A stretch of 35,824 bases of DNA from an uncultured virus (IMG/VR IMGVR_UViG_3300028833_000009) (lineage: Duplodnaviria > Heunggongvirae > Uroviricota > Caudoviricetes), in the IMG/VR virus record IMGVR_UViG_3300028833_000009; one strand, written 5' to 3'. This document shows positions 4,719-14,620 of this stretch, one piece after another. The notes under the pieces were generated by a model. That model worked only from the letters and a program-made list of their open reading frames with translations, was not told the DNA's origin and ran no database searches. Each line of letters starts with the position of its first letter. Positions within the stretch are counted from its first letter, which is position 1. Both the position numbers and the translations under genes were made by a program.

Positions 4719-4743
4719 ATTATAGGCATTGTAATTTTTGCGA
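4719..4743 (-). promoter_or_regulatory. phage promoter motif copy
   Basis: TCGCA AAAATT ACA ATGCC TATAAT, then GAG. Confidence 0.75.
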
Positions 4744-4781: not shown

Positions 4782-6227
4782 TCAGTTAAAGGTATACTCC
4801 TCAATTCTCTTAAGAAGCGTGCCTTCGCCTTTCTCAGCCAGTATAATGAATTCAAATATCTTTTCGGACCATCCGGCAATGATATTTGTCTTCTTTCCGG
4901 TAAACTGCTGCGTGCCGTATCCTTGCAGATCAATCGCATGCACCCAGATATCGTTACCTGTCTGTTTACGATACTGATCTGCCAGTGATTGAACAGTTGT
5001 ATGGCGCCACCAGGTAATTCCGGTATTGCATTCATTATCCGAAAGTATAATGACACGATCCACACGTATACCTCTGCTCATCAGATAATGGAATGGCTGA
5101 CCAATATCTGTTCCGCCAACCGTGCCCTCCTGACTGATTACAGTAGAAATCAGCGGGACATTTGCAGGAATATGCATTGGATAAATATGCGTATCAAACT
5201 GACACACATAAGCATCCTCGCAAAGTCTGTTTGCAATCAGTCCGAGCATCGTAGCGATTTCATAGCAACTAACCTTCGATTTCTGGCTTATCCAGGAATC
5301 CATTGATCCTGAAGAATCAATTGCAATAAGTGTTCTTCCTGGAATCTTCGGCAGATTGTCAACAGAATATGCTGCAGCCTGTTCGAGAGCATTCAGTACT
5401 TTGCTTCCGCATGTATCCTGAACAGCTTTGTATGCAGACAAATATCTGAAAGGCAACTGCTTGGAATTTCTTACTGCCTCAGGATTGGAAATATGATCGA
5501 GAACCCTGTCCAGATTCTGCGGCTCAGCGGCAAGAATATTCCGCAGATTCCTGAGCAGTGCCATATAGCCCACCTTACCAGAATCAATCAATGCTTCCCA
5601 GGTCTGCTGATTATTTCCTTTGGCAGACAATTCCACTTCCCAGGTATACGGAGCTTCCAGTCGATCCTCAAGTAGTTTTTTCCAGGTCTCAGACTGCTTA
5701 TCGTTCTCAGGAGAAGGATGGCAAAGGCAGAGAATATCCCTCATCTTCACTTCCTTACCGGTTCCCTTATACTTGGCAAGAGTATAAGCGTCGAAGGTTG
5801 TGAAAATATCCCGCAGTCCTTTGCGAAGACTATTGGGAATAGGCTTGCCATACTTACCGAGATAACAGGACAGAACTTCGGTTGCGTCATCTCCACGAAG
5901 CACAATGCCCTTCAATGTCCGCTTCACAAAAGGTTTCCCTTCAATTGCATGAGCCAGCTGAGCAGTCAGTACATGGGAAATAGACCGCATGTTGAACTCA
6001 CGACGGGCAAATATCGCCAGATTGGATACGAACTTCGGATCGGTCTTGATAACACGATCCACGGTTTCGATAATCTCATCAGAATTATCGCCATAGAACT
6101 TCTTCTCATTGAAGAATGAAGTCAGAACCTGGGTAATGAGTTTAGACTTGTCATCCATGGAATATGCGACATGTCCGCAATGGTTTTCGGTCTTGATGGA
6201 TTTGGCGTCATTGTTGAATTTGGACAT
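4782..6227 (-). CDS. rsr: Ro60/Rsr-family RNA-binding protein (TROVE + VWA), 481 aa; start revised to MSKFNND
   Basis: TROVE motifs (F.E.KFY, AR...NMRS, LAKY, HP.P, TWE..LS, GYMALLRNLRNI, PFRYL.A) and VWA MIDAS DSSGSM, GGTD, ILSDNE; AGGAGG SD before ATG at 6227. Confidence 0.92.
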   Translation of the reverse strand: MSKFNNDAKSIKTENHCGHVAYSMDDKSKLITQVLTSFFNEKKFYGDNSDEIIETVDRVIKTDPKFVSNLAIFARREFNMRSISHVLTAQLAHAIEGKPFVKRTLKGIVLRGDDATEVLSCYLGKYGKPIPNSLRKGLRDIFTTFDAYTLAKYKGTGKEVKMRDILCLCHPSPENDKQSETWKKLLEDRLEAPYTWEVELSAKGNNQQTWEALIDSGKVGYMALLRNLRNILAAEPQNLDRVLDHISNPEAVRNSKQLPFRYLSAYKAVQDTCGSKVLNALEQAAAYSVDNLPKIPGRTLIAIDSSGSMDSWISQKSKVSCYEIATMLGLIANRLCEDAYVCQFDTHIYPMHIPANVPLISTVISQEGTVGGTDIGQPFHYLMSRGIRVDRVIILSDNECNTGITWWRHTTVQSLADQYRKQTGNDIWVHAIDLQGYGTQQFTGKKTNIIAGWSEKIFEFIILAEKGEGTLLKRIEEYTFN

Positions 6228-6272
6228 AACAGTACCCCTCCTAAAAATATTGTTGACAATAGTAATAAGAAG

Positions 6273-6389
6273 TTTGTTCATGCAGATAAAATCGTAAAGA
6301 GTTTAGACAAAGAACACGAAAGGGGGTGAACAATGGAAACCGTAATAATTTCGAAGTAACTCTTTACTGGCAATGCTGCATGAAACAAA
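6273..6389 (-). ncRNA. Y-RNA-like hairpin B
   Basis: Stems UCAUGCAG/CUGCAUGA and GUAAAGAG/CUCUUUAC, then UUACUUCGAA; directly upstream of Ro60. Confidence 0.7.
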
Positions 6390-6393
6390 CAAA

Positions 6394-6474
6394 GGAGAGG
6401 TAGATCAATTCATAAACGGCTTTACAATCAAATCCCTAATTCGAAGTATCCGTTTATTACAATACTACCTCTCC
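6394..6474 (-). ncRNA. Y-RNA-like hairpin A
   Basis: Stems GGAGAGGUAG/CUACCUCUCC and AUAAACGG/CCGUUUAU, then AUACUUCGAA; begins at the first base after the promoter motif. Confidence 0.7.
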
Positions 6475-6499
6475 ATTTATAGCGTTGTAAAATTTGCGA
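6475..6499 (-). promoter_or_regulatory. phage promoter motif copy (drives Y-like RNAs and Ro60)
   Basis: TCGCA AATTTT ACA ACGCT ATAAAT, then GGAG. Confidence 0.75.
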
Positions 6500-6503
6500 T
6501 TTT

Positions 6504-6764
6504 TTACGCAGTGGCATATGCTTCTTCGTTCAGATACTCATCAATCACCATAAGCAAATATCTGAGACCTTTATACTTATGTGTTGGAAGCCGCCGAAGA
6601 TCATTCAGACGAATCCCATTACGCAGAATATCATACAAAAGTCCATTATGCCGATGCCACATCAGCAGTTCTCTCCGTCCAGAAAAGTTGAGATAAATAT
6701 CGAATCCGGATTGTTTATAATTGTTTACACCGACGACCTTAATGTTCCCTTCCTTGTTACACAT
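6504..6764 (-). CDS. hypothetical protein (86 aa) in the Ro60 locus
   Basis: AAGGAGG SD; ORF track. Confidence 0.75.
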   Translation of the reverse strand: MCNKEGNIKVVGVNNYKQSGFDIYLNFSGRRELLMWHRHNGLLYDILRNGIRLNDLRRLPTHKYKGLRYLLMVIDEYLNEEAYATA

Positions 6765-6797
6765 GATAAATCCTCCTTTTTAATAATTGATAAAAAT

Positions 6798-6906
6798 AAA
6801 GAGAAGACAAAACGTTCATGCGTCGTTTCATACGCATCTTCAAACTCAGTTTCTGTTTATTCATTGCATGCCTGAGTTCGGTATATCAAGCTTGTCTTCT
6901 CTTCTC
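6798..6906 (-). ncRNA. structured RNA C (three-stem junction), or 5' leader of the 86-aa gene
   Basis: AAGAGAAGACAA/UUGUCUUCUCUU closing stem followed by a U-rich tail; inner stems GAACUCAG/CUGAGUUU and AUGCGU/ACGCAU. Confidence 0.55.
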
Positions 6907-6931
6907 ATTTATAGCGTTGTAAAATTTGCGA
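6907..6931 (-). promoter_or_regulatory. phage promoter motif copy
   Basis: TCGCA AATTTT ACA ACGCT ATAAAT, identical to 6475-6499. Confidence 0.75.
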
Positions 6932-6966
6932 ACAGAAAGAAAAACGGGGCTTTGCGCTCCTGGTCG

Positions 6967-7017
6967 TCACCAGGTCATTGCGCGTTCCCCTTCGCATAAA
7001 AACGGAGCTCCACACAT
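6967..7017 (-). CDS. possible 16-aa peptide MCGAPFLCEGERAMTW inside structured transcript D
   Basis: AAGGAGG-N9-ATG...TGA; the only ORF between the promoter at 7066-7090 and the terminator at about 6935-6990. Confidence 0.4.
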   Translation of the reverse strand: MCGAPFLCEGERAMTW

Positions 7018-7065
7018 CTGTTTTACCCTCCTTTCGGTTTTCAGTAAACGTATGCATCCGTTTCT

Positions 7066-7090
7066 ATTTATAGCATTGAATTTTTTGCGA
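7066..7090 (-). promoter_or_regulatory. phage promoter motif copy
   Basis: TCGCA AAAAAT TCA ATGCT ATAAAT, then AGA. Confidence 0.7.
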
Positions 7091-7118
7091 AAAAGAAAGG
7101 CTGCGTAGTGCAGCCCTC
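7091..7118 (-). terminator. intrinsic terminator
   Basis: AGGGCTGC-ACTAC-GCAGCCTT-TCTTTTT. Confidence 0.8.
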
Positions 7119-7122
7119 TGTC

Positions 7123-7428
7123 TTAGGGATCAAAAATCCCATCTTCAAGTTTCTTAATAAACTCGTTGTTGTAGTCATGCTTATTAATCCTACGATGGGC
7201 ATCATAGTTAATGATCATCTTAAGACGATATATCTTTTCAGACGTATCCTTGATAATTCTTGCAGCCCTCATTTCTTCATAAGAAGCAAATTCGTGCCCT
7301 TCAGAATCAAAATTCTGCAAGTCATCAAAGTTAATATGCACGTCTTTCAGCGCCTTAACACAATCAATAATCACCCGATGATACTCTTCTTTAATCCTTT
7401 TAACTACATCTTCGTGTTCCATTGTCAT
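7123..7428 (-). CDS. hypothetical protein (101 aa)
   Basis: GGAGGTG SD; own promoter motif and terminator. Confidence 0.75.
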   Translation of the reverse strand: MTMEHEDVVKRIKEEYHRVIIDCVKALKDVHINFDDLQNFDSEGHEFASYEEMRAARIIKDTSEKIYRLKMIINYDAHRRINKHDYNNEFIKKLEDGIFDP

Positions 7429-8314: not shown

Positions 8315-8501
8315 TATTCTTAATCTCCTTTAACTTATCAATACTTGTTCTAATATTAAAACCATAATCAAAACCTATCTTCATGCCATTTAAAAAGCTA
8401 ATTGTACCATTTTTTATATCCAAAAATGTTGCTATAGTCCAAACAAGCGCAATCACAAAAGCTCCTGAAATATTACCGATTATAAAACTCATCCAATCCA
8501 T
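8289..8501 (-). CDS. small membrane protein
   Basis: N-terminal hydrophobic helix FIIGNISGAFVIALVWTIATF. Confidence 0.65.
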   Translation of the reverse strand: MDWMSFIIGNISGAFVIALVWTIATFLDIKNGTISFLNGMKIGFDYGFNIRTSIDKLKEIKNNEQKDRCN

Positions 8502-8528
8502 ACTTTTAATATACCACCTTCTGAATTG

Positions 8529-8723
8529 TCATTTCATTTCTCTCCTTTTTCCAGCAGGACAAAACCAGTCATCGGAAACACAACAGTCGTCACATACACA
8601 ATATGCCGTCATATAGTCTCTGCAATCCTTACATCGGATTAACTCTTTTGGTTGTTCTAATAGATACGTTGCACCCATAATATCTGTTCTTGATTCATCA
8701 ATCTTGATAATATACTCTTTCAT
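8529..8723 (-). CDS. small Cys-rich protein
   Basis: ELIRCKDC...DDWFCPAG; start taken at MKEY after the junction motif. Confidence 0.7.
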   Translation of the reverse strand: MKEYIIKIDESRTDIMGATYLLEQPKELIRCKDCRDYMTAYCVCDDCCVSDDWFCPAGKRREMK

Positions 8724-8841
8724 TTCCACTCCACCAACCTTCCCATTCTGTAACGTCTGAACCGCAATATGGGCAACGCATAACTGTTGTTGGATAGATT
8801 CTGTGCCAGCGTTCGCATTGTTTACAAAACACCCAAATCAT
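8698..8841 (-). CDS. 47-aa zinc-ribbon protein (not in ORF track)
   Basis: MIWVFCKQCERWHRIYPTTVMRCPYCGSDVTEW...; ATGA overlap. Confidence 0.65.
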   Translation of the reverse strand: MIWVFCKQCERWHRIYPTTVMRCPYCGSDVTEWEGWWSGNERVYYQD

Positions 8842-9203
8842 TTCCACTTCACCACCTTACATTGTTCAAACGTTGGCTTTCCAGTAAATAACTTTAATTT
8901 TCCCATTAAAAGAGCAGGTTCATGTATGGTGTTTGGATCAAGTACCCACATCGGAGACGTATCATATTCCCATAGCTCACATACCGGATTTCGTTTTGGA
9001 TTATTTTTCCATTCTTTCCATTCGTCAATGGTAAGCTCACGAATTTCATGTTCTTTAAGTAAGGTAATTGTATCTTCAATCATTTTTCCCATGCAATATT
9101 CTGGTTCCTTAATTGCCAGGAATTCTCGACCACTACAGATTTCATATGGGTTACTTTCTCTGAAAATTTCCCATGCTTTAATGAGTCGTTCTGAATCAAT
9201 CAT
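8838..9203 (-). CDS. hypothetical protein (121 aa)
   Basis: GGAGG SD; MIDSERLIKA...TITLLKE N-terminal module shared with neighbours. Confidence 0.7.
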   Translation of the reverse strand: MIDSERLIKAWEIFRESNPYEICSGREFLAIKEPEYCMGKMIEDTITLLKEHEIRELTIDEWKEWKNNPKRNPVCELWEYDTSPMWVLDPNTIHEPALLMGKLKLFTGKPTFEQCKVVKWK

Positions 9204-9441
9204 TTTTTACTGTACCTCCGACAGCTTCCTGTTTAATTTCACGCAGGTAATTAATTGTTGCCTGAGCCCGTTCAATATAATCGCCAATCCGTTCCCATAA
9301 TTTTGCATCTACTATACAAAATTTTGAATCATAAATTTTTGTATGATGAATGGCTCCAAGTGTTGCATTTAATGAATTACAAAAATGATTTACGCTTTCA
9401 TCGGCATCTCTTGCCGGATCATATGTCATAAAGTCAATCAT
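9196..9441 (-). CDS. hypothetical protein (81 aa)
   Basis: ORF track; junction motif upstream. Confidence 0.65.
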   Translation of the reverse strand: MIDFMTYDPARDADESVNHFCNSLNATLGAIHHTKIYDSKFCIVDAKLWERIGDYIERAQATINYLREIKQEAVGGTVKND

Positions 9442-9465
9442 TCTTACTTCACCGCCTTTTACTGT

Positions 9466-9747
9466 TCAATAATTAAGTTTTGTCCTTGCATAATATTCAG
9501 TTACTTCTGATAATGGTACGACTGTTATGTCTTTTACACACGTTTGTCCTTCGCAAAAATCATTTAAGAACTTTATTGTTTCATAATCAGAATCACTTTT
9601 GCAAAAAATAACTTCTTCATGGCATTCCCATTCGTCATCATAACTATATTTCTGTAGAAAAAATGCCACTACATCTTGTGGAAAAGTATTCTTCCAATAT
9701 GTTCTAACCGCATCTGCGATATAATCATAACTATCTTTTTCAATCAT
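9466..9747 (-). CDS. hypothetical protein (93 aa)
   Basis: ORF track; packed. Confidence 0.65.
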   Translation of the reverse strand: MIEKDSYDYIADAVRTYWKNTFPQDVVAFFLQKYSYDDEWECHEEVIFCKSDSDYETIKFLNDFCEGQTCVKDITVVPLSEVTEYYARTKLNY

Positions 9748-9749
9748 TT

Positions 9750-10025
9750 CTATTTAGCATCCCCCATTTTCAAATATTTATCATTGTATTTAGGTTTCGA
9801 TAATTCATACTTATTCCAATAAAAATGTCGTTCTTCTTCTGTTAAATTGGATACTAAAATCCTCATACATTCATTGAATCGTGGCGTAAGATGACGCTCT
9901 TTATTAGTCATTTTCGCCCAATTCTTTGGCGGCCTTCCAAATATAAAAGGATCCCATTTAAAGCAATTCATCATTACATAGGATTTTCCAATACGATCTT
10001 TCGAATATTTACTAATGTCAACCAT
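9750..10025 (-). CDS. hypothetical protein (91 aa)
   Basis: AGGAGG SD. Confidence 0.7.
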   Translation of the reverse strand: MVDISKYSKDRIGKSYVMMNCFKWDPFIFGRPPKNWAKMTNKERHLTPRFNECMRILVSNLTEEERHFYWNKYELSKPKYNDKYLKMGDAK

Positions 10026-10057
10026 TTAAAGAATCCTCCTGCTTTCTGAGTATCTTT

Positions 10058-10234
10058 TTATTTTTCCTTTATAGGGCATTCAATTTGACGCTTTTTATAA
10101 TCTTTTGTACTAAAAGTTTTATGAGTTAAACAACAATATCGTTTTTCAATTTCGTCAGGCGAATATTCACCTTTATTCATGGGACATTCATGACAGTTCT
10201 TAGGAATTTCCATTTCAATCTCTATATTTTTCAT
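10058..10234 (-). CDS. 58-aa Cys-rich protein (not in ORF track)
   Basis: MKNIEIEMEIPKNCHECPM...YCC...CPIKEK; same pattern as 10812..11048. Confidence 0.65.
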   Translation of the reverse strand: MKNIEIEMEIPKNCHECPMNKGEYSPDEIEKRYCCLTHKTFSTKDYKKRQIECPIKEK

Positions 10235-10248
10235 TCCACAGGGCCTCT

Positions 10249-10566
10249 CTATTCACATGCACCTTCTGACAAAGTTCGTGCATGAGAGATTTTTATTTCT
10301 TTAGAATTTATCTCTTTCGCGAAGCTTTTCTCTATATATTCTTTTGTGAATTTCATCACACACTCAGGACAACATGCGTCATAATACTCGTGAGAATCAA
10401 TACTATCATTTCCCCAATCATTGTGCCATGTGTGAATAACAAAATAGTTATAGTCTTTTAAGTCATTAGCTTTTTCAATATTTTTTCCACATATATCGCA
10501 CTTCCTGCCGATAATGACCTCATCAACTGTAACATGTGTAACCTCTTTCCGCTCTACAATCTTCAC
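10249..10566 (-). CDS. zinc-binding hypothetical protein
   Basis: CDICG...ACCPEC; AGGAGG SD with GTG start. Confidence 0.7.
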   Translation of the reverse strand: MKIVERKEVTHVTVDEVIIGRKCDICGKNIEKANDLKDYNYFVIHTWHNDWGNDSIDSHEYYDACCPECVMKFTKEYIEKSFAKEINSKEIKISHARTLSEGACE

Positions 10567-10582
10567 GAAAATGCCTCCTTAA

Positions 10583-10792
10583 TCATGATTCATTTGCTTT
10601 ACTTTTCTTTAAATCTCTATAAAGTATATGCTGTGCGGTTTCCGATTTAAAATCTACTTCAATATCTGCTATAATGCTTCCATCTTGGTTTTGTATATAG
10701 TCTGGAGCGTTCAGCAGTATTTCATCACGGCGCTTGATTGCTTCCATATCTGGATGTATCATTATGCTCCATGGAATGGATAATTCGTCCAT
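10583..10792 (-). CDS. hypothetical protein; start revised to MDELS
   Basis: Junction/SD motif GAAGGTCGGTGAA precedes ATG at 10792. Confidence 0.55.
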   Translation of the reverse strand: MDELSIPWSIMIHPDMEAIKRRDEILLNAPDYIQNQDGSIIADIEVDFKSETAQHILYRDLKKSKANES

Positions 10793-10811
10793 AAAATTCA
10801 CCGACCTTCCT

Positions 10812-11048
10812 TTATGTTGCAGATTGCATGATTGGCATATCAGCAAACTGACAACCACCAGACTTGATACCCTTACATGTTCTTTTTGCAATATCAAGTA
10901 CAAACTCCTTTAATGGACACCAATATGGCCTATATTCAAATGTTGATCTTTTCTCTTTATCTGCCTCACATCTACTATGTTCACTATTATTGCATGGGCA
11001 TCTGTAACAGTAGTCTGGAAGTGCATCCATTGTTGTTATCACTATCAT
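10812..11048 (-). CDS. Cys-rich protein
   Basis: PDYCYRCPC...RPYWCPLKE. Confidence 0.7.
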   Translation of the reverse strand: MIVITTMDALPDYCYRCPCNNSEHSRCEADKEKRSTFEYRPYWCPLKEFVLDIAKRTCKGIKSGGCQFADMPIMQSAT

Positions 11049-11308
11049 TTCCACTTCATCTCCTTACCGCACATTCTGCAGAATTTGTCTCCATTTGTTA
11101 TAGGTACTCCACACGAACCGCAGCACCAGAAAAGCATATGCATAATTTCACGCTGTATAACTGGTACGGCTTGTTCTCCATCTGTCTTTTGTTCAGAATC
11201 TTTAGGTTTTTTATTTGTGCGTGAGTTGTATACAGCATCTTCTAAAGCCCATTCATAATTTTCTGGCGCATCTTCATTTTCAAACCAATGTCTTTCTGTC
11301 AAACCCAT
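11045..11308 (-). CDS. zinc-ribbon protein
   Basis: CGSCG...FCRMCGKEMKW. Confidence 0.7.
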   Translation of the reverse strand: MGLTERHWFENEDAPENYEWALEDAVYNSRTNKKPKDSEQKTDGEQAVPVIQREIMHMLFWCCGSCGVPITNGDKFCRMCGKEMKWK

Positions 11309-11315
11309 TCCCACT

Positions 11316-11402
11316 TCACCGCCTGTCGTCTAAAAATGCACAGATTAATGTAATCACGATGCCGACCACCATTCCTATAAAAAATAAACGAATTTCAAAC
11401 AT
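11316..11402 (-). CDS. 28-aa single-TM peptide (not in ORF track)
   Basis: MFEIRLFFIGMVVGIVITLICAFLDDRR; GGAG SD; fills the gap exactly. Confidence 0.55.
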   Translation of the reverse strand: MFEIRLFFIGMVVGIVITLICAFLDDRR

Positions 11403-11607
11403 TTTGTTCTCCGTTATACATGTCATACACTGTGTACCAAGCGTGTTCTGTTTGAATAAGTCTTGAACTTTTTATAAGTTCTAATGCATCAGCAAGCAAT
11501 TTTTTACAACTCAATGCTTGTTTTTCTTTCCCGTACTGACATTTTATGCAATTTCTATTCCCTAAACATTCTTTTAATTCTTTGATAACCTTCACCATGT
11601 CAGGCAT
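11395..11607 (-). CDS. Cys-containing small protein; start revised to MPDMVKVIKEL
   Basis: Junction motif before ATG at 11607; C..C.Y...C..L..DA..L.K family. Confidence 0.65.
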   Translation of the reverse strand: MPDMVKVIKELKECLGNRNCIKCQYGKEKQALSCKKLLADALELIKSSRLIQTEHAWYTVYDMYNGEQNV

Positions 11608-11917
11608 CCACTTCACCGCCTGATTTGCTATATTTCTCACACATTTCGTTCCATTTTTCAACTGCCTCATCAACCGTTTTGAAATACTTTCGTCCGTAAA
11701 AATTATCAGCAGCAAATGCAATCTTTACGATGTTACATTCTCTGCAACGGAATGCCCAATCATAACTGCTGCCGTCCATTCCCTGAGATTCTCTTTCGAT
11801 ACTTATTTCGATATTTGAACTTCCACAAAGTGGGCAAGCATGAACAGGAATACTCGGTTTCGTATTTCTTTGTTCGTGAGACGTTATCCCACAGCCATAC
11901 ATAGGATATGGTGTCAT
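11600..11917 (-). CDS. Lar-family-like (restriction alleviation) zinc-ribbon protein
   Basis: ACPLCGS...RCRECN...EAVEKWN. Confidence 0.65.
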   Translation of the reverse strand: MTPYPMYGCGITSHEQRNTKPSIPVHACPLCGSSNIEISIERESQGMDGSSYDWAFRCRECNIVKIAFAADNFYGRKYFKTVDEAVEKWNEMCEKYSKSGGEVDA

Positions 11918-11933
11918 TCTTACTTCACCGCCT

Positions 11934-12167
11934 TTATGTCGCTGACATCATGATGCTTTTCAATGTGTCTTGATCGCCATATTTCAATACCCTGAGTTTT
12001 TCTTCAAGTTCTTGGATTCGTGCGTCCTGCTCTTTTACCAGTGATATGGCATCAGATGTTAAATCATCTACGCATTCACAATTAAAATATGGGCAATGCG
12101 GACATGTAGAACCATCGTGTTTTGAACAATGTTCCAGCCCTTTGACAACTTTTTCTCTGTCAACAAT
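11934..12167 (-). CDS. 77-codon gene starting with ATT (non-canonical start or lost start)
   Basis: (I)VDREKVVKGLEHC...CPHCPY...DAISLVKEQ, homologous to neighbouring genes. Confidence 0.55.
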   Translation of the reverse strand: MVDREKVVKGLEHCSKHDGSTCPHCPYFNCECVDDLTSDAISLVKEQDARIQELEEKLRVLKYGDQDTLKSIMMSAT

Positions 12168-12173
12168 TCTATT

Positions 12174-12368
12174 TTACCTACCTTCCTTCCGTTCATTTGT
12201 CACAAATTTCAATGGTAAATGTGACTCATATGTTTTATGACGGATGATAAGTTCTGGAATTGACGAATAAAAACTATCAAATTGTTCCTGTTCTTTTGCT
12301 TCCTCAATCAGCATTGCACGTTCCCATGCTGTAAGCCATTCACCACTTAACGGTTCGCCATTATTCAT
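12174..12368 (-). CDS. hypothetical protein (64 aa)
   Basis: ORF track; packed. Confidence 0.6.
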   Translation of the reverse strand: MNNGEPLSGEWLTAWERAMLIEEAKEQEQFDSFYSSIPELIIRHKTYESHLPLKFVTNERKEGR

Positions 12369-12374
12369 TTCATT

Positions 12375-12683
12375 TTACCAATCCTTTCTATGCCATTTTC
12401 CATCTATTCCCTCATACATCAATTCTTGTTTGCCAAGCATAGCGTCATTAAAACCATTTTCATATTCATTTTTATACTCTTTCATCAGACATATGCCTTC
12501 CATCATGCTCTGTGCCGTCTGCTTAAGGTTGTCAATCTCTTCTCCCTGCTCTTTCAGCAAGGAAATGGCACTCGTAGTAACCTGTCCGATTCTAATGCAC
12601 ATTTCTGGAGTAAGCATTTGCGGATTATAATACAATATAAGTTTTGCTGTATTCAAATCATTAATAACTTTCTCCAAATTCAT
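12375..12683 (-). CDS. hypothetical protein (102 aa)
   Basis: MNLEKVINDL...AISLLKEQ module. Confidence 0.7.
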   Translation of the reverse strand: MNLEKVINDLNTAKLILYYNPQMLTPEMCIRIGQVTTSAISLLKEQGEEIDNLKQTAQSMMEGICLMKEYKNEYENGFNDAMLGKQELMYEGIDGKWHRKDW

Positions 12684-12689
12684 CCAACT

Positions 12690-12884
12690 TCACCGACCTT
12701 CTCTTGTTTGACCGTAATGCGGACATATATACACACGATTCTCTAATGGCTCTATGGACATTTTGCAAGAATTTTCCGACAATTCAATAGATACAATCAA
12801 TTTGTCTTTCCTCGCTCTTGAAATTAAGAATTGTGCAAAATCTTCTACCTTATCGAAACCCCACGATTTTGCAATCTTATCCAT
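12690..12884 (-). CDS. hypothetical protein (64 aa)
   Basis: Flanked by two near-identical junction motifs. Confidence 0.65.
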   Translation of the reverse strand: MDKIAKSWGFDKVEDFAQFLISRARKDKLIVSIELSENSCKMSIEPLENRVYICPHYGQTREGR

Positions 12885-12890
12885 CCAACT

Positions 12891-13190
12891 TCACCGACCT
12901 TTCTGCGTTGGTTTTACAACGTGAATCCTTGCTTCGATTTCTGTAGCGTCTAATATTGGCTCATACTTATTCTCGCTACTAAAAAATTCCACAAATCCTT
13001 CAGCAACGAGTTTGCTTGCTAGCTTATTTGCTATATCTGTCTTTACAAATTCGACTTCCTTTGGCCCAATATTATGTGCTCGGCAATAATCCCTTTTTGC
13101 TATTTGAATTGACCGTTCAATCATCATGTCATCTTTGCCATTCATCGGGACAGATACAAATACCGTTTTAATTTTGCTCATGGTTTCCAT
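12891..13190 (-). CDS. hypothetical protein; N-terminus resembles DUF4406/nucleoside deoxyribosyltransferase-like proteins
   Basis: VFVSVPMNGK N-terminal motif; the rest is not recognisable. Confidence 0.5.
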   Translation of the reverse strand: METMSKIKTVFVSVPMNGKDDMMIERSIQIAKRDYCRAHNIGPKEVEFVKTDIANKLASKLVAEGFVEFFSSENKYEPILDATEIEARIHVVKPTQKGR

Positions 13191-13909: not shown

Positions 13910-13973
13910 ATTTATAGAAGTGTTTTGTTTGCGAAAAAAAAATAATAGGGCTAAGTCTCATGGTTCTTAGCCC
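13910..13973 (-). promoter_or_regulatory. terminator + promoter motif unit
   Basis: GGGCTAAG...CTTAGCCC, T run, then TCGCA AACAAA ACA CTTCT ATAAAT AGGAGG. Confidence 0.8.
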
Positions 13974-14565: not shown

Positions 14566-14620
14566 ACTTATAGGAGTGTTTTGTTTGCGAATAAAAAAAT
14601 GAGTCCTTGTTCAGGACTCA
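14566..14620 (-). promoter_or_regulatory. terminator + promoter motif unit
   Basis: TGAGTCCT-GAACA-AGGACTCA-T run, then TCGCA AACAAA ACA CTCCT ATAAGT AGGAGG. Confidence 0.8.

Follow-up and report, generated by a model that had tools for sequence, protein, structure and literature searches.

The stretch of DNA considered here, referred to throughout as the window, comprises 35,824 nucleotides (nt) from an uncultured virus of the Caudoviricetes (IMG/VR record IMGVR_UViG_3300028833_000009); it is a stretch of phage genome whose genes lie on the minus strand. Among them is a gene for Ro60 (4782-6227, minus strand; Pfam TROVE, 1e-34; vWA_Ro60, 1.6e-13), and directly upstream of it lie two Y-like RNAs, Y RNA A and Y RNA B, the second of which carries in its loop a tract resembling the 3' tail of 16S rRNA, that is, an anti-Shine-Dalgarno (anti-SD) sequence. 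The open reading frame (ORF) of Ro60 spans 4782-6281, its actual start being the ATG at 6227, which is preceded by the Shine-Dalgarno (SD) sequence AGGAGGGG. Relatives of this protein, ~45-63% identical, are found in viral contigs and in rumen and gut metagenome-assembled genomes (MAGs) with records mostly named Clostridia; those of ~60% identity come from 4 viral loci and from 25 loci in genome records named Clostridia or Bacilli. The Ro60 of one related locus, L005, is 63% identical to that of the window. Particles of Ro60 and Y RNA have been described from both bacteria and phages. Known Y RNAs include tRNA mimics as well as non-tRNA types whose loops are rich in pyrimidines (PMC4201824), and one phage Ro60, preceded by two Y-like RNAs, is known to complex with the host PNPase (PMC12135203).

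RNA B (6270-6392, minus strand) adjoins Ro60 on the same strand and is predicted to fold into a long hairpin with paired ends, in which a lower stem (6376-6390 with 6272-6285) and an upper stem (6358-6367 with 6294-6303) are separated by a 5' internal loop, CAUUGCCA (6368-6375), and a 3' internal loop, GAUUUUAU (6286-6293), both of them conserved. The hairpin has a folding energy of -34 kcal/mol (z = -6.8), and none of 200 shuffles folds equally well. RNA A (6393-6475, minus strand), a Y RNA with a short loop, lies immediately 5' of RNA B and likewise folds well (z = -6.2). The motif CGAA, or GNCGAAN0-1G, near the 5' side is a Y RNA trait according to PMC4201824 and PMC12135203; the ACUUCGAAAU of RNA B includes CGAA, with U for the first G of the longer motif and the closing G absent. 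The loop of RNA B has no T-loop motif and the RNA has no tRNA-like part, which places it among the non-tRNA Y RNAs, with YrlB/Yrn2 as its nearest counterparts. An Rfam search of 6150-7200 gave the window Y RNAs no match, either at gathering score or at E <= 10.

Both RNAs belong to a wider family, found as arrays of RNAs with one common frame upstream of the Ro60 relatives. In the frame, the lower and upper stems are joined on the 5' side by the internal loop (C/U)A(U/G)UG(C/U)A; (U)UACUUCG then opens a variable module, which is followed by the 3' strand of the upper stem, the 3' internal loop GAUUUU(A/C)U, and the 3' strand of the lower stem. Many of the modules are tRNA-like, and two of those at L001 match Rfam YrlA under its gathering score (E 7e-9 and 1.6e-7); at gathering score, the related loci yielded only tRNAs. 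A covariance model, R1, built from an alignment of 24 short-loop relatives (the window excluded) with the frame as its structure, recovered RNA A (6397-6471, minus strand, 51.7 bits, E 1e-10) and RNA B (6279-6382, minus strand, 47.6 bits, E 1.1e-9), the third-best match in the window having an E value of only 0.57. Across 59 sources the model gave 96 matches at E <= 0.001, every one of them (96/96) on the Ro60 strand. With filters off, L002:2381-2484, L003:353-453, L015:105-216 and L015:427-536 were also recognized as members, and L015:239-404 was matched partially only (E 0.011). The stems of the family are paired in 88.9% of cells (57.0% after shuffling), compensatory changes on both sides are seen for 14 of 15 pairs across 90 distinct sequences, and the covariation score is 0.766, compared with 0.19 after shuffling and 0.05-0.145 for slid controls, although the alignment was fitted to R1 itself, which flatters these numbers somewhat. 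By analogy with known Y RNAs, Ro60 would hold RNA B by this frame, namely its stems, the CAUUGYA and GAUUUUAU loops, and the ACUUCGAA motif.

The feature that sets RNA B apart is its effector loop of 54 nt (6304-6357, minus strand), which is mostly unpaired and 70% pyrimidine (38/54 nt). It starts with ACUUCGAAAUUAUU (6357-6344), a motif conserved across family members, and further along contains the tract UCACCCCCUUUC (6318-6329, minus strand), which agrees at 11 of 12 positions with UCACCUCCUUUC of the 16S rRNA tail. The 16S 3' end used for comparison was taken from two Clostridia genomes with Ro60 relatives, both of which end in ...GGAUCACCUCCUUUCUA. The C/U core of the tract is predicted to be unpaired (0.99-1.0), and the likeness to the tail scores 19, a value that dinucleotide shuffles of the loop reach at a frequency of 0.0015. 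The first-pass annotation of this DNA had described a Ro60-linked Y-like RNA whose loop shows an anti-SD tract, and both the R1 match and the comparison with the tail bear this out.

Only one true homologue of RNA B was recovered, at L005:2338-2437 (44.9 bits), and it has UCACCUCCUU at the aligned position of the tract while the flanking loop sequence has diverged. In a pairwise global alignment, the window and L005 loops share the blocks ACUUCGAAAUUAUU, CGGUU, UCCA and UCACC(C/U)CC-UUC, and the rest differs. A scan of the viral collection with a 20-nt pattern gave no further homologue beyond the L005 contig, and a scan of metagenomes matched 21 stretches, one being the same L005 contig and the other 20 chance matches without a Y frame. 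Identity to the tail is 11/12 in the window, 13/14 with one gap in L005, and 14/16 in another locus, L015, and all of these stretches are predicted to be single-stranded. The core of the tract varies pyrimidine-for-pyrimidine (CCCCC, CCUCC, UUUCC, CCUUC), and its C-to-U changes retain G·U pairing with GGAGG.

Several comparisons suggest that this likeness exceeds chance. When 139 unique loops from 152 frame RNAs at 51 loci were collected with a custom scanner and scored against the 16S tail, the four highest were L005 (22), L015:239-404 (22; best stretch GAUCAUUUCCUUUCUA, 14/16 to the tail), L015:425-539 (19) and the window (19), with dinucleotide-shuffle frequencies of 0.0005, 0.0005, 0.011 and 0.0015, respectively. 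Each of the four is a non-tRNA loop 35 nt or longer; tRNA-like loops (86) and short loops (28) score at most 14. Among control tails run over the same loops, scores peaked at 18 for the reversed tail and at 14 for the reverse-complement tail, and permuted tails of the same composition never yielded four or more loops at a score of at least 19 (0/600; mean 0.05). On the Ro60 strand, tail-like matches occur five times in 16,748 nt of Y RNA and five times in 371,044 nt elsewhere, making them ~22 times denser within Y RNAs (0.23 expected, Poisson P 4e-6; P 1.6e-3 with three matches counted as independent). Likewise, CCTCC is present in 4 of 24 non-window loops versus 0.96 in shuffles (P 0.009), GGAGG in none of the 24, and in the R1-defined catalogue of 90 unique loops L005 ranks first and the window second. 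A bias toward anti-SD sequence in other Ro60-linked loops, which had been put forward as a check, is thus present, for a subset or small clade only. The tract is probably a selected feature of a small group drawn from three phage lineages.

A number of observations weigh against this conclusion or against particular parts of it. A cruder test, the longest exact 12-mer match against permuted 12-mers, gave a P of only 0.08. The motif TCACYYYC was defined post hoc, and one of its four matches (L032) lies in a tRNA-like module. A second Ro60 alignment brought in 22 more viral loci and no new tail-like loop, and the independent lineages are few, consisting of the window with its homologue L005 and the two L015 RNAs. 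Further candidates are of little help: L008 and L013 have CCUCC-like stretches, but these are predicted to be part of hairpin stems (unpaired 0.53 and 0.26, respectively) and were therefore left out of the class as not being free anti-SD tracts, and the tail-like match of L046 falls within the 3' internal loop, a part of the frame with a U/C-rich consensus of its own, so that it offers no independent support. The likeness to 16S rRNA does not continue upstream of the tail into helix 45. The centre of the window tract is C rather than U and would face the A of GGAGG, which is the commonest SD of the phage (27/70 upstream regions, versus 1/70 for GGGGG); this central C neither settles nor excludes SD pairing or tail mimicry, and sequence alone does not separate the two. 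In a ~95% identical strain from another study, a contig appears to be one base short at 6326, within the C run, and again at 6335, where the plus strand would then read ATG AAA CCG TAA, a frame of 3 codons; because this is a single contig of depth 3.8, the base losses could be errors. Finally, contig cover in two RNA libraries is patchy and silent on expression level, strand and RNA ends.

As for transcription, a promoter-like box, TCGCAAATTTTACAACGCTATAA (6477-6499, minus strand), is located just upstream of RNA A. Its pattern, TCGCAAA-N9-13-TATAA, has six copies in the window, all on the minus strand (4720-4743, 6477-6499, 6909-6931, 7068-7090, 13912-13934 and 14568-14590), versus 0.08 expected. 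Such a box is absent from the intervals that separate RNA A, RNA B and Ro60. In a metatranscriptome library, one contig covers 6190-6463, which fits a single transcript, although contigs alone are no proof of one; an RNA-library contig of a relative, with a depth of 20.5, has only this promoter-like box in common. RNA A, RNA B and Ro60 are probably carried on one transcript from the box at 6499.

Two further short units on the minus strand also follow a promoter-like box. One, at 6935-7062, has an SD (GAAAGGAGGG) and a 16-codon ORF (MCGAPFLCEGERAMTW), and ends in a G+C-rich hairpin followed by a U run (fold z = -2.3); its SD region can pair by eye with the tract of RNA B over 11 bp with one bulge. 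The other, at 6790-6905, forms a long hairpin (-34.6 kcal/mol, z = -4.6) with a U run at its end, directly precedes an 86-codon ORF (6504-6764), and has no match to the Y-frame model.

A specific target for the loop was sought in the window, in 406 Clostridia genomes, and in phages and plasmids; nothing was found beyond generic contexts of SD plus ATG. A duplex scan of both window strands gave, as its best non-self partners, only bulged and generic start regions. The 29-nt core of the loop pairs with 57 start regions of the phage at a mean of -13.5 kcal/mol, compared with -7.5 for control segments, -12.3 for the 16S tail and -11.7 +/- 0.76 for shuffled cores, 4 of 150 shuffles being as good. 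Nine start regions pair at -19 kcal/mol or lower, several of them from a cluster of small genes with a common leader. When the tract was kept and its flanks were shuffled, pairing counts were not significantly lower (P 0.11-0.23); the tract alone therefore explains the pairing to phage start regions. The 10-nt match at the start of 12891-13190, noted earlier as the only one in the window and as weak, is real but ranks outside the best partners. Allowing up to 3 mismatches, the 24-mer GAAAGGGGGTGAACAATGGAAACC was absent from all five Ro60-bearing genomes and occurred in 5 of 401 genomes of the same order, each time with 3 mismatches and in an ordinary SD plus ATG context (a backwards control gave 0), and BLAST of 6300-6360 against phages and plasmids had a best E value of 0.4.

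The leaders of the small genes, AAGG-Y-GGTGAAGT-RRR-ATG (8.5-12.9 kb), were considered as preferred partners and rejected, the excess having disappeared once the flanks alone were shuffled. The genes themselves, about ten of 64-105 codons at ~8500-12900 on the minus strand, are probably paralogues, and their common leader, AAGG-Y-(C)GGTGAAGT-RRR-ATG, looks like a split SD pairing with both halves of the 16S tail.

Taken as a whole, these data favour the reading that RNA B (6270-6392, minus strand) is a Ro60-associated, non-tRNA, YrlB-like Y RNA whose loop acts as a generic anti-SD sequence or 16S-tail mimic rather than as a programmable guide, for which a probability of about 0.55 seems appropriate. 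The paired 5' and 3' ends would form the frame for Ro60 and leave the loop free as an effector module, in which the selected feature would be a single-stranded copy of the 16S 3' tail, UCACC(C/U)CCUU(U)C. Such a module might work in either of two ways. The tract could pair with the SD-like purine tracts of many mRNAs and so bring Ro60, together with any partner exonuclease, to their start regions; or factors that bind or cut the 16S tail could take the tract for the tail, much as YrlA modules pass for tRNA. In either case, the mode of action is most likely generic and not specific to one gene. It is tempting to go further and propose a class of phage Y RNAs in which the tRNA-like module of YrlA has been replaced by a mimic of the 16S 3' tail, a suggestion that is put forward tentatively, as being on balance doubtful.

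Of the competing explanations, an ordinary pyrimidine-rich loop deserves the most attention. The loop could be a landing pad for a single-strand RNA-binding protein, such as the host PNPase through its KH/S1 domains, as in RYPER complexes, or another exonuclease, the anti-SD likeness of the loop being a side effect of C/U composition. Known bacterial non-tRNA Y RNAs (YrlB, Yrn2) form long hairpins with loops rich in pyrimidines (PMC4201824), and the 70% pyrimidine content of the RNA B loop, the pyrimidine-for-pyrimidine variation of its core and the P of 0.08 in the 12-mer test would all suit such a pad. So would the gene directly upstream of the B-type RNA in L005, which encodes a MYG1-type exonuclease. 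This gene (L005:1391-2329, plus strand; MYG1 family, PF03690, E 5.8e-42) directly precedes the B-type Y RNA and Ro60, and its product could be a phage-encoded nuclease partner; none of this family was seen in the window. Composition, however, does not reproduce the matches, either in permuted tails (0/600) or in dinucleotide shuffles, and the matches extend to a non-pyrimidine flank, (GA)UCA, so that a mere protein pad is judged unlikely, while retaining appreciable weight. The location of RNA B raises a different possibility, namely that of a leader acting in cis, in which base-pairing between the tract and the SD of the Ro60 mRNA just downstream sets Ro60 translation, possibly with feedback through Ro60 binding. 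Both B-type RNAs lie directly 5' of Ro60, 43 nt (window) and ~65 nt (L005) before its start, no promoter-like box or terminator intervenes, and the RNA-library contig spans RNA A, RNA B and the start of Ro60. Yet the Ro60 start region ranks only 37th of 57 as a partner for the loop core (-11.1 kcal/mol), the tract and the Ro60 SD are not partners in the minimum-energy fold of 6220-6480, no matching changes in tract and Ro60 SD are seen by eye between the window and L005, and the tail-like RNAs of L015 are not those adjoining Ro60; regulation of this kind is therefore improbable.

The plus strand accounts for the two remaining alternatives. The loop had been read as the exact antisense of an SD, a spacer, an ATG and a short ORF (METVII...), and the sequence is precisely as described: an SD-like tract of 12 nt, GAAAGGGGGTGA (6318-6329, plus strand), is followed after a 3-nt gap, 6 nt beyond its G run, by the ATG at 6333-6335, which opens an 8-codon frame, METVIISK* (6333-6359; ATG GAA ACC GTA ATA ATT TCG AAG TAA). 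From this it had been proposed that RNA B could be an antisense guide by which Ro60, perhaps with a host nuclease, reaches the start of translation on one particular mRNA of host, defence or competitor origin. On paper, 35 nt are continuously antisense to the SD, ATG and ORF start, and a target could have been missed in a search that covered 406 genomes. The details argue otherwise. A start codon at workable spacing would be expected beside any SD-like tract with a chance of roughly 0.1-0.3 (an estimate, not a computed value), and the ATG half of the observation is not beyond chance; L005, the sole homologue, has CAA where the window loop has the CAU complementary to the ATG, and the strain variant mentioned above appears to shift both spacing and frame. 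Moreover, 14 of the 35 antisense nt belong to the family-wide ACUUCGAAAUUAUU motif, which lies opposite codons 4-8 and adjoins the Ro60-binding stem, and the ACUUCGAA part of the supposed guide is present in nearly all family members, marking it as part of the frame and not as a programmable segment. A variable segment with co-changing targets, as a programmable guide would have, was not seen, and the gene-start matches anticipated in Clostridia genomes and mobile elements came down to the generic contexts and poor E values given above (E >= 0.4). With the tract alone accounting for the pairing, a guide for one specific translation start is very improbable. Least credible of all is a functional plus strand, that is, a real SD with an 8-codon micro-ORF or an antisense transcript. 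The SD is strong, the spacing good, the ATG present, and a weak promoter-like site occurs at 6221-6248; against this, every family match lies on the Ro60 strand, the tRNA-like modules of neighbouring RNAs fix the same orientation, the L005 frame has a TTG start and no conserved stop, being open over 30 codons or more, in the variant contig the frame appears shortened to 3 codons, and plus-strand promoter-like sites are no commoner than in shuffles (4 found, 3.2 expected). The frame was accordingly judged not to be a gene, as had been suspected at the outset, and translation of the 8-residue peptide finds no support.

Other members of the family show features of their own. At L001, L010 and L013, Ro60/Y RNA arrays adjoin phage integrase genes, and at L001 a tRNA-like fragment as well; the module therefore appears to lie at a prophage end, as an accessory cassette would. 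The L015 array (L015:103-851, plus strand) comprises five Y-frame RNAs, none of them fully tRNA-like, with long loops rich in C/U tracts (CCUUUCUA twice, UUCCUCCAU and AUCACCUUCUUUG). In two different phages, the modules at L008:1934-2030 and L013:322-432 (plus strand) share a small hairpin with the loop CCAACCC, which may represent a separate module class. Finally, in six loci (L040, L043, L071, L078, L079 and L080) the last Y RNA before Ro60 has a 29-nt module, AUACUUCG-N-ACU(G/U)UUAAU...AAAUYGAC, constituting a conserved short-loop class of several lineages directly upstream of Ro60. Elsewhere in the window, genes include those for ThyX, a tail lysozyme, a holin, a gp58-like tail protein, a Lar-like protein, and an NlpC/P60 peptidoglycan hydrolase with a peptidoglycan-binding domain, and a tRNA gene lies within the phage at 18277-18350 (minus strand, 65.2 bits). 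Public sequencing runs containing the window originate from the gut of sheep and goats.

Should the loop indeed be an anti-SD copy, Ro60 particles could be aimed at translation starts or could imitate the end of the ribosome that docks on mRNA, and the imitation of abundant cellular RNAs by Y RNAs would extend from tRNA to rRNA. A Ro60 particle docked on SD regions generally would couple Ro60 to the control or decay of mRNAs at their translation starts during infection. Alternatively, the particle might serve as a decoy or sensor for enzymes acting on the 16S tail by cutting, trimming or re-joining. This option has a known parallel in Salmonella, where Ro60 and Y RNAs share an operon with RtcB, of which the sole bacterial substrate reported is a cleaved 16S 3' fragment (PMC7790460); RtcB was not seen in the window. 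If the tract is merely a pyrimidine-rich protein pad, RNA B would be an ordinary new member of the YrlB-like kind from rumen phages.

Among known systems, RNA B is most readily compared with YrlB and Yrn2. As described in PMC4201824, the YrlB of S. Typhimurium, the YrlB of M. smegmatis and the Yrn2 of D. radiodurans lie, like RNA B, just upstream of Ro60 on the same strand, consist of a long hairpin of 5' and 3' ends with a pyrimidine-rich loop and no tRNA-like domain, and share their locus with at least one further Y RNA, possibly released from the same precursor. RNA B differs in its loop, which at 54 nt contrasts with their 'small' loops and includes the 12-nt copy of the 16S tail, and the sequence of its frame is confined to one clade of phages and MAGs with records mostly named Clostridia. 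Another close parallel is the Thermus phage phiLo (PMC12135203), in which a phage Ro60 is likewise preceded directly by two Y-like RNAs (Yrl1/Yrl2) sharing a common CGAA motif and for which hijacking of a host exonuclease has been proposed in that paper; phiLo belongs to another phage and host group, and the text of PMC12135203 mentions no anti-SD or 16S likeness.

YrlA (Rfam RF02553) has the same Ro60-linked frame, YrlA-like RNAs occur in the same arrays of related phages, and the logic of a module imitating an abundant cellular RNA is alike. Unlike YrlA, RNA B has no T-arm or D-arm and no Rfam match, and its imitation, if any, is of the rRNA tail and not of tRNA. In the C-rich small RNAs of Firmicutes, RsaE and RoxS, an unpaired C-rich tract can pair with G-rich SD regions, and under SD pairing RNA B would work in a similar way. 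RsaE and RoxS are, however, free-standing regulators with defined regulons and no Ro60, whereas the tract of RNA B is held in a Ro60-binding frame and has no definable regulon. The 16S rRNA 3' tail itself (...GGAUCACCUCCUUUCUA) also differs, the tract of RNA B being internal to a loop rather than a free 3' end. A full-text search, which left the supplementary Y RNA tables and Figure S4 of PMC4201824 outside its reach, found no publication that reports an anti-SD or 16S-tail-like module in any Y RNA. A phage Ro60 preceded by Y-like RNAs is already known (PMC4201824; PMC12135203); what appears to be new is a Y RNA loop resembling the anti-SD or 16S tail.

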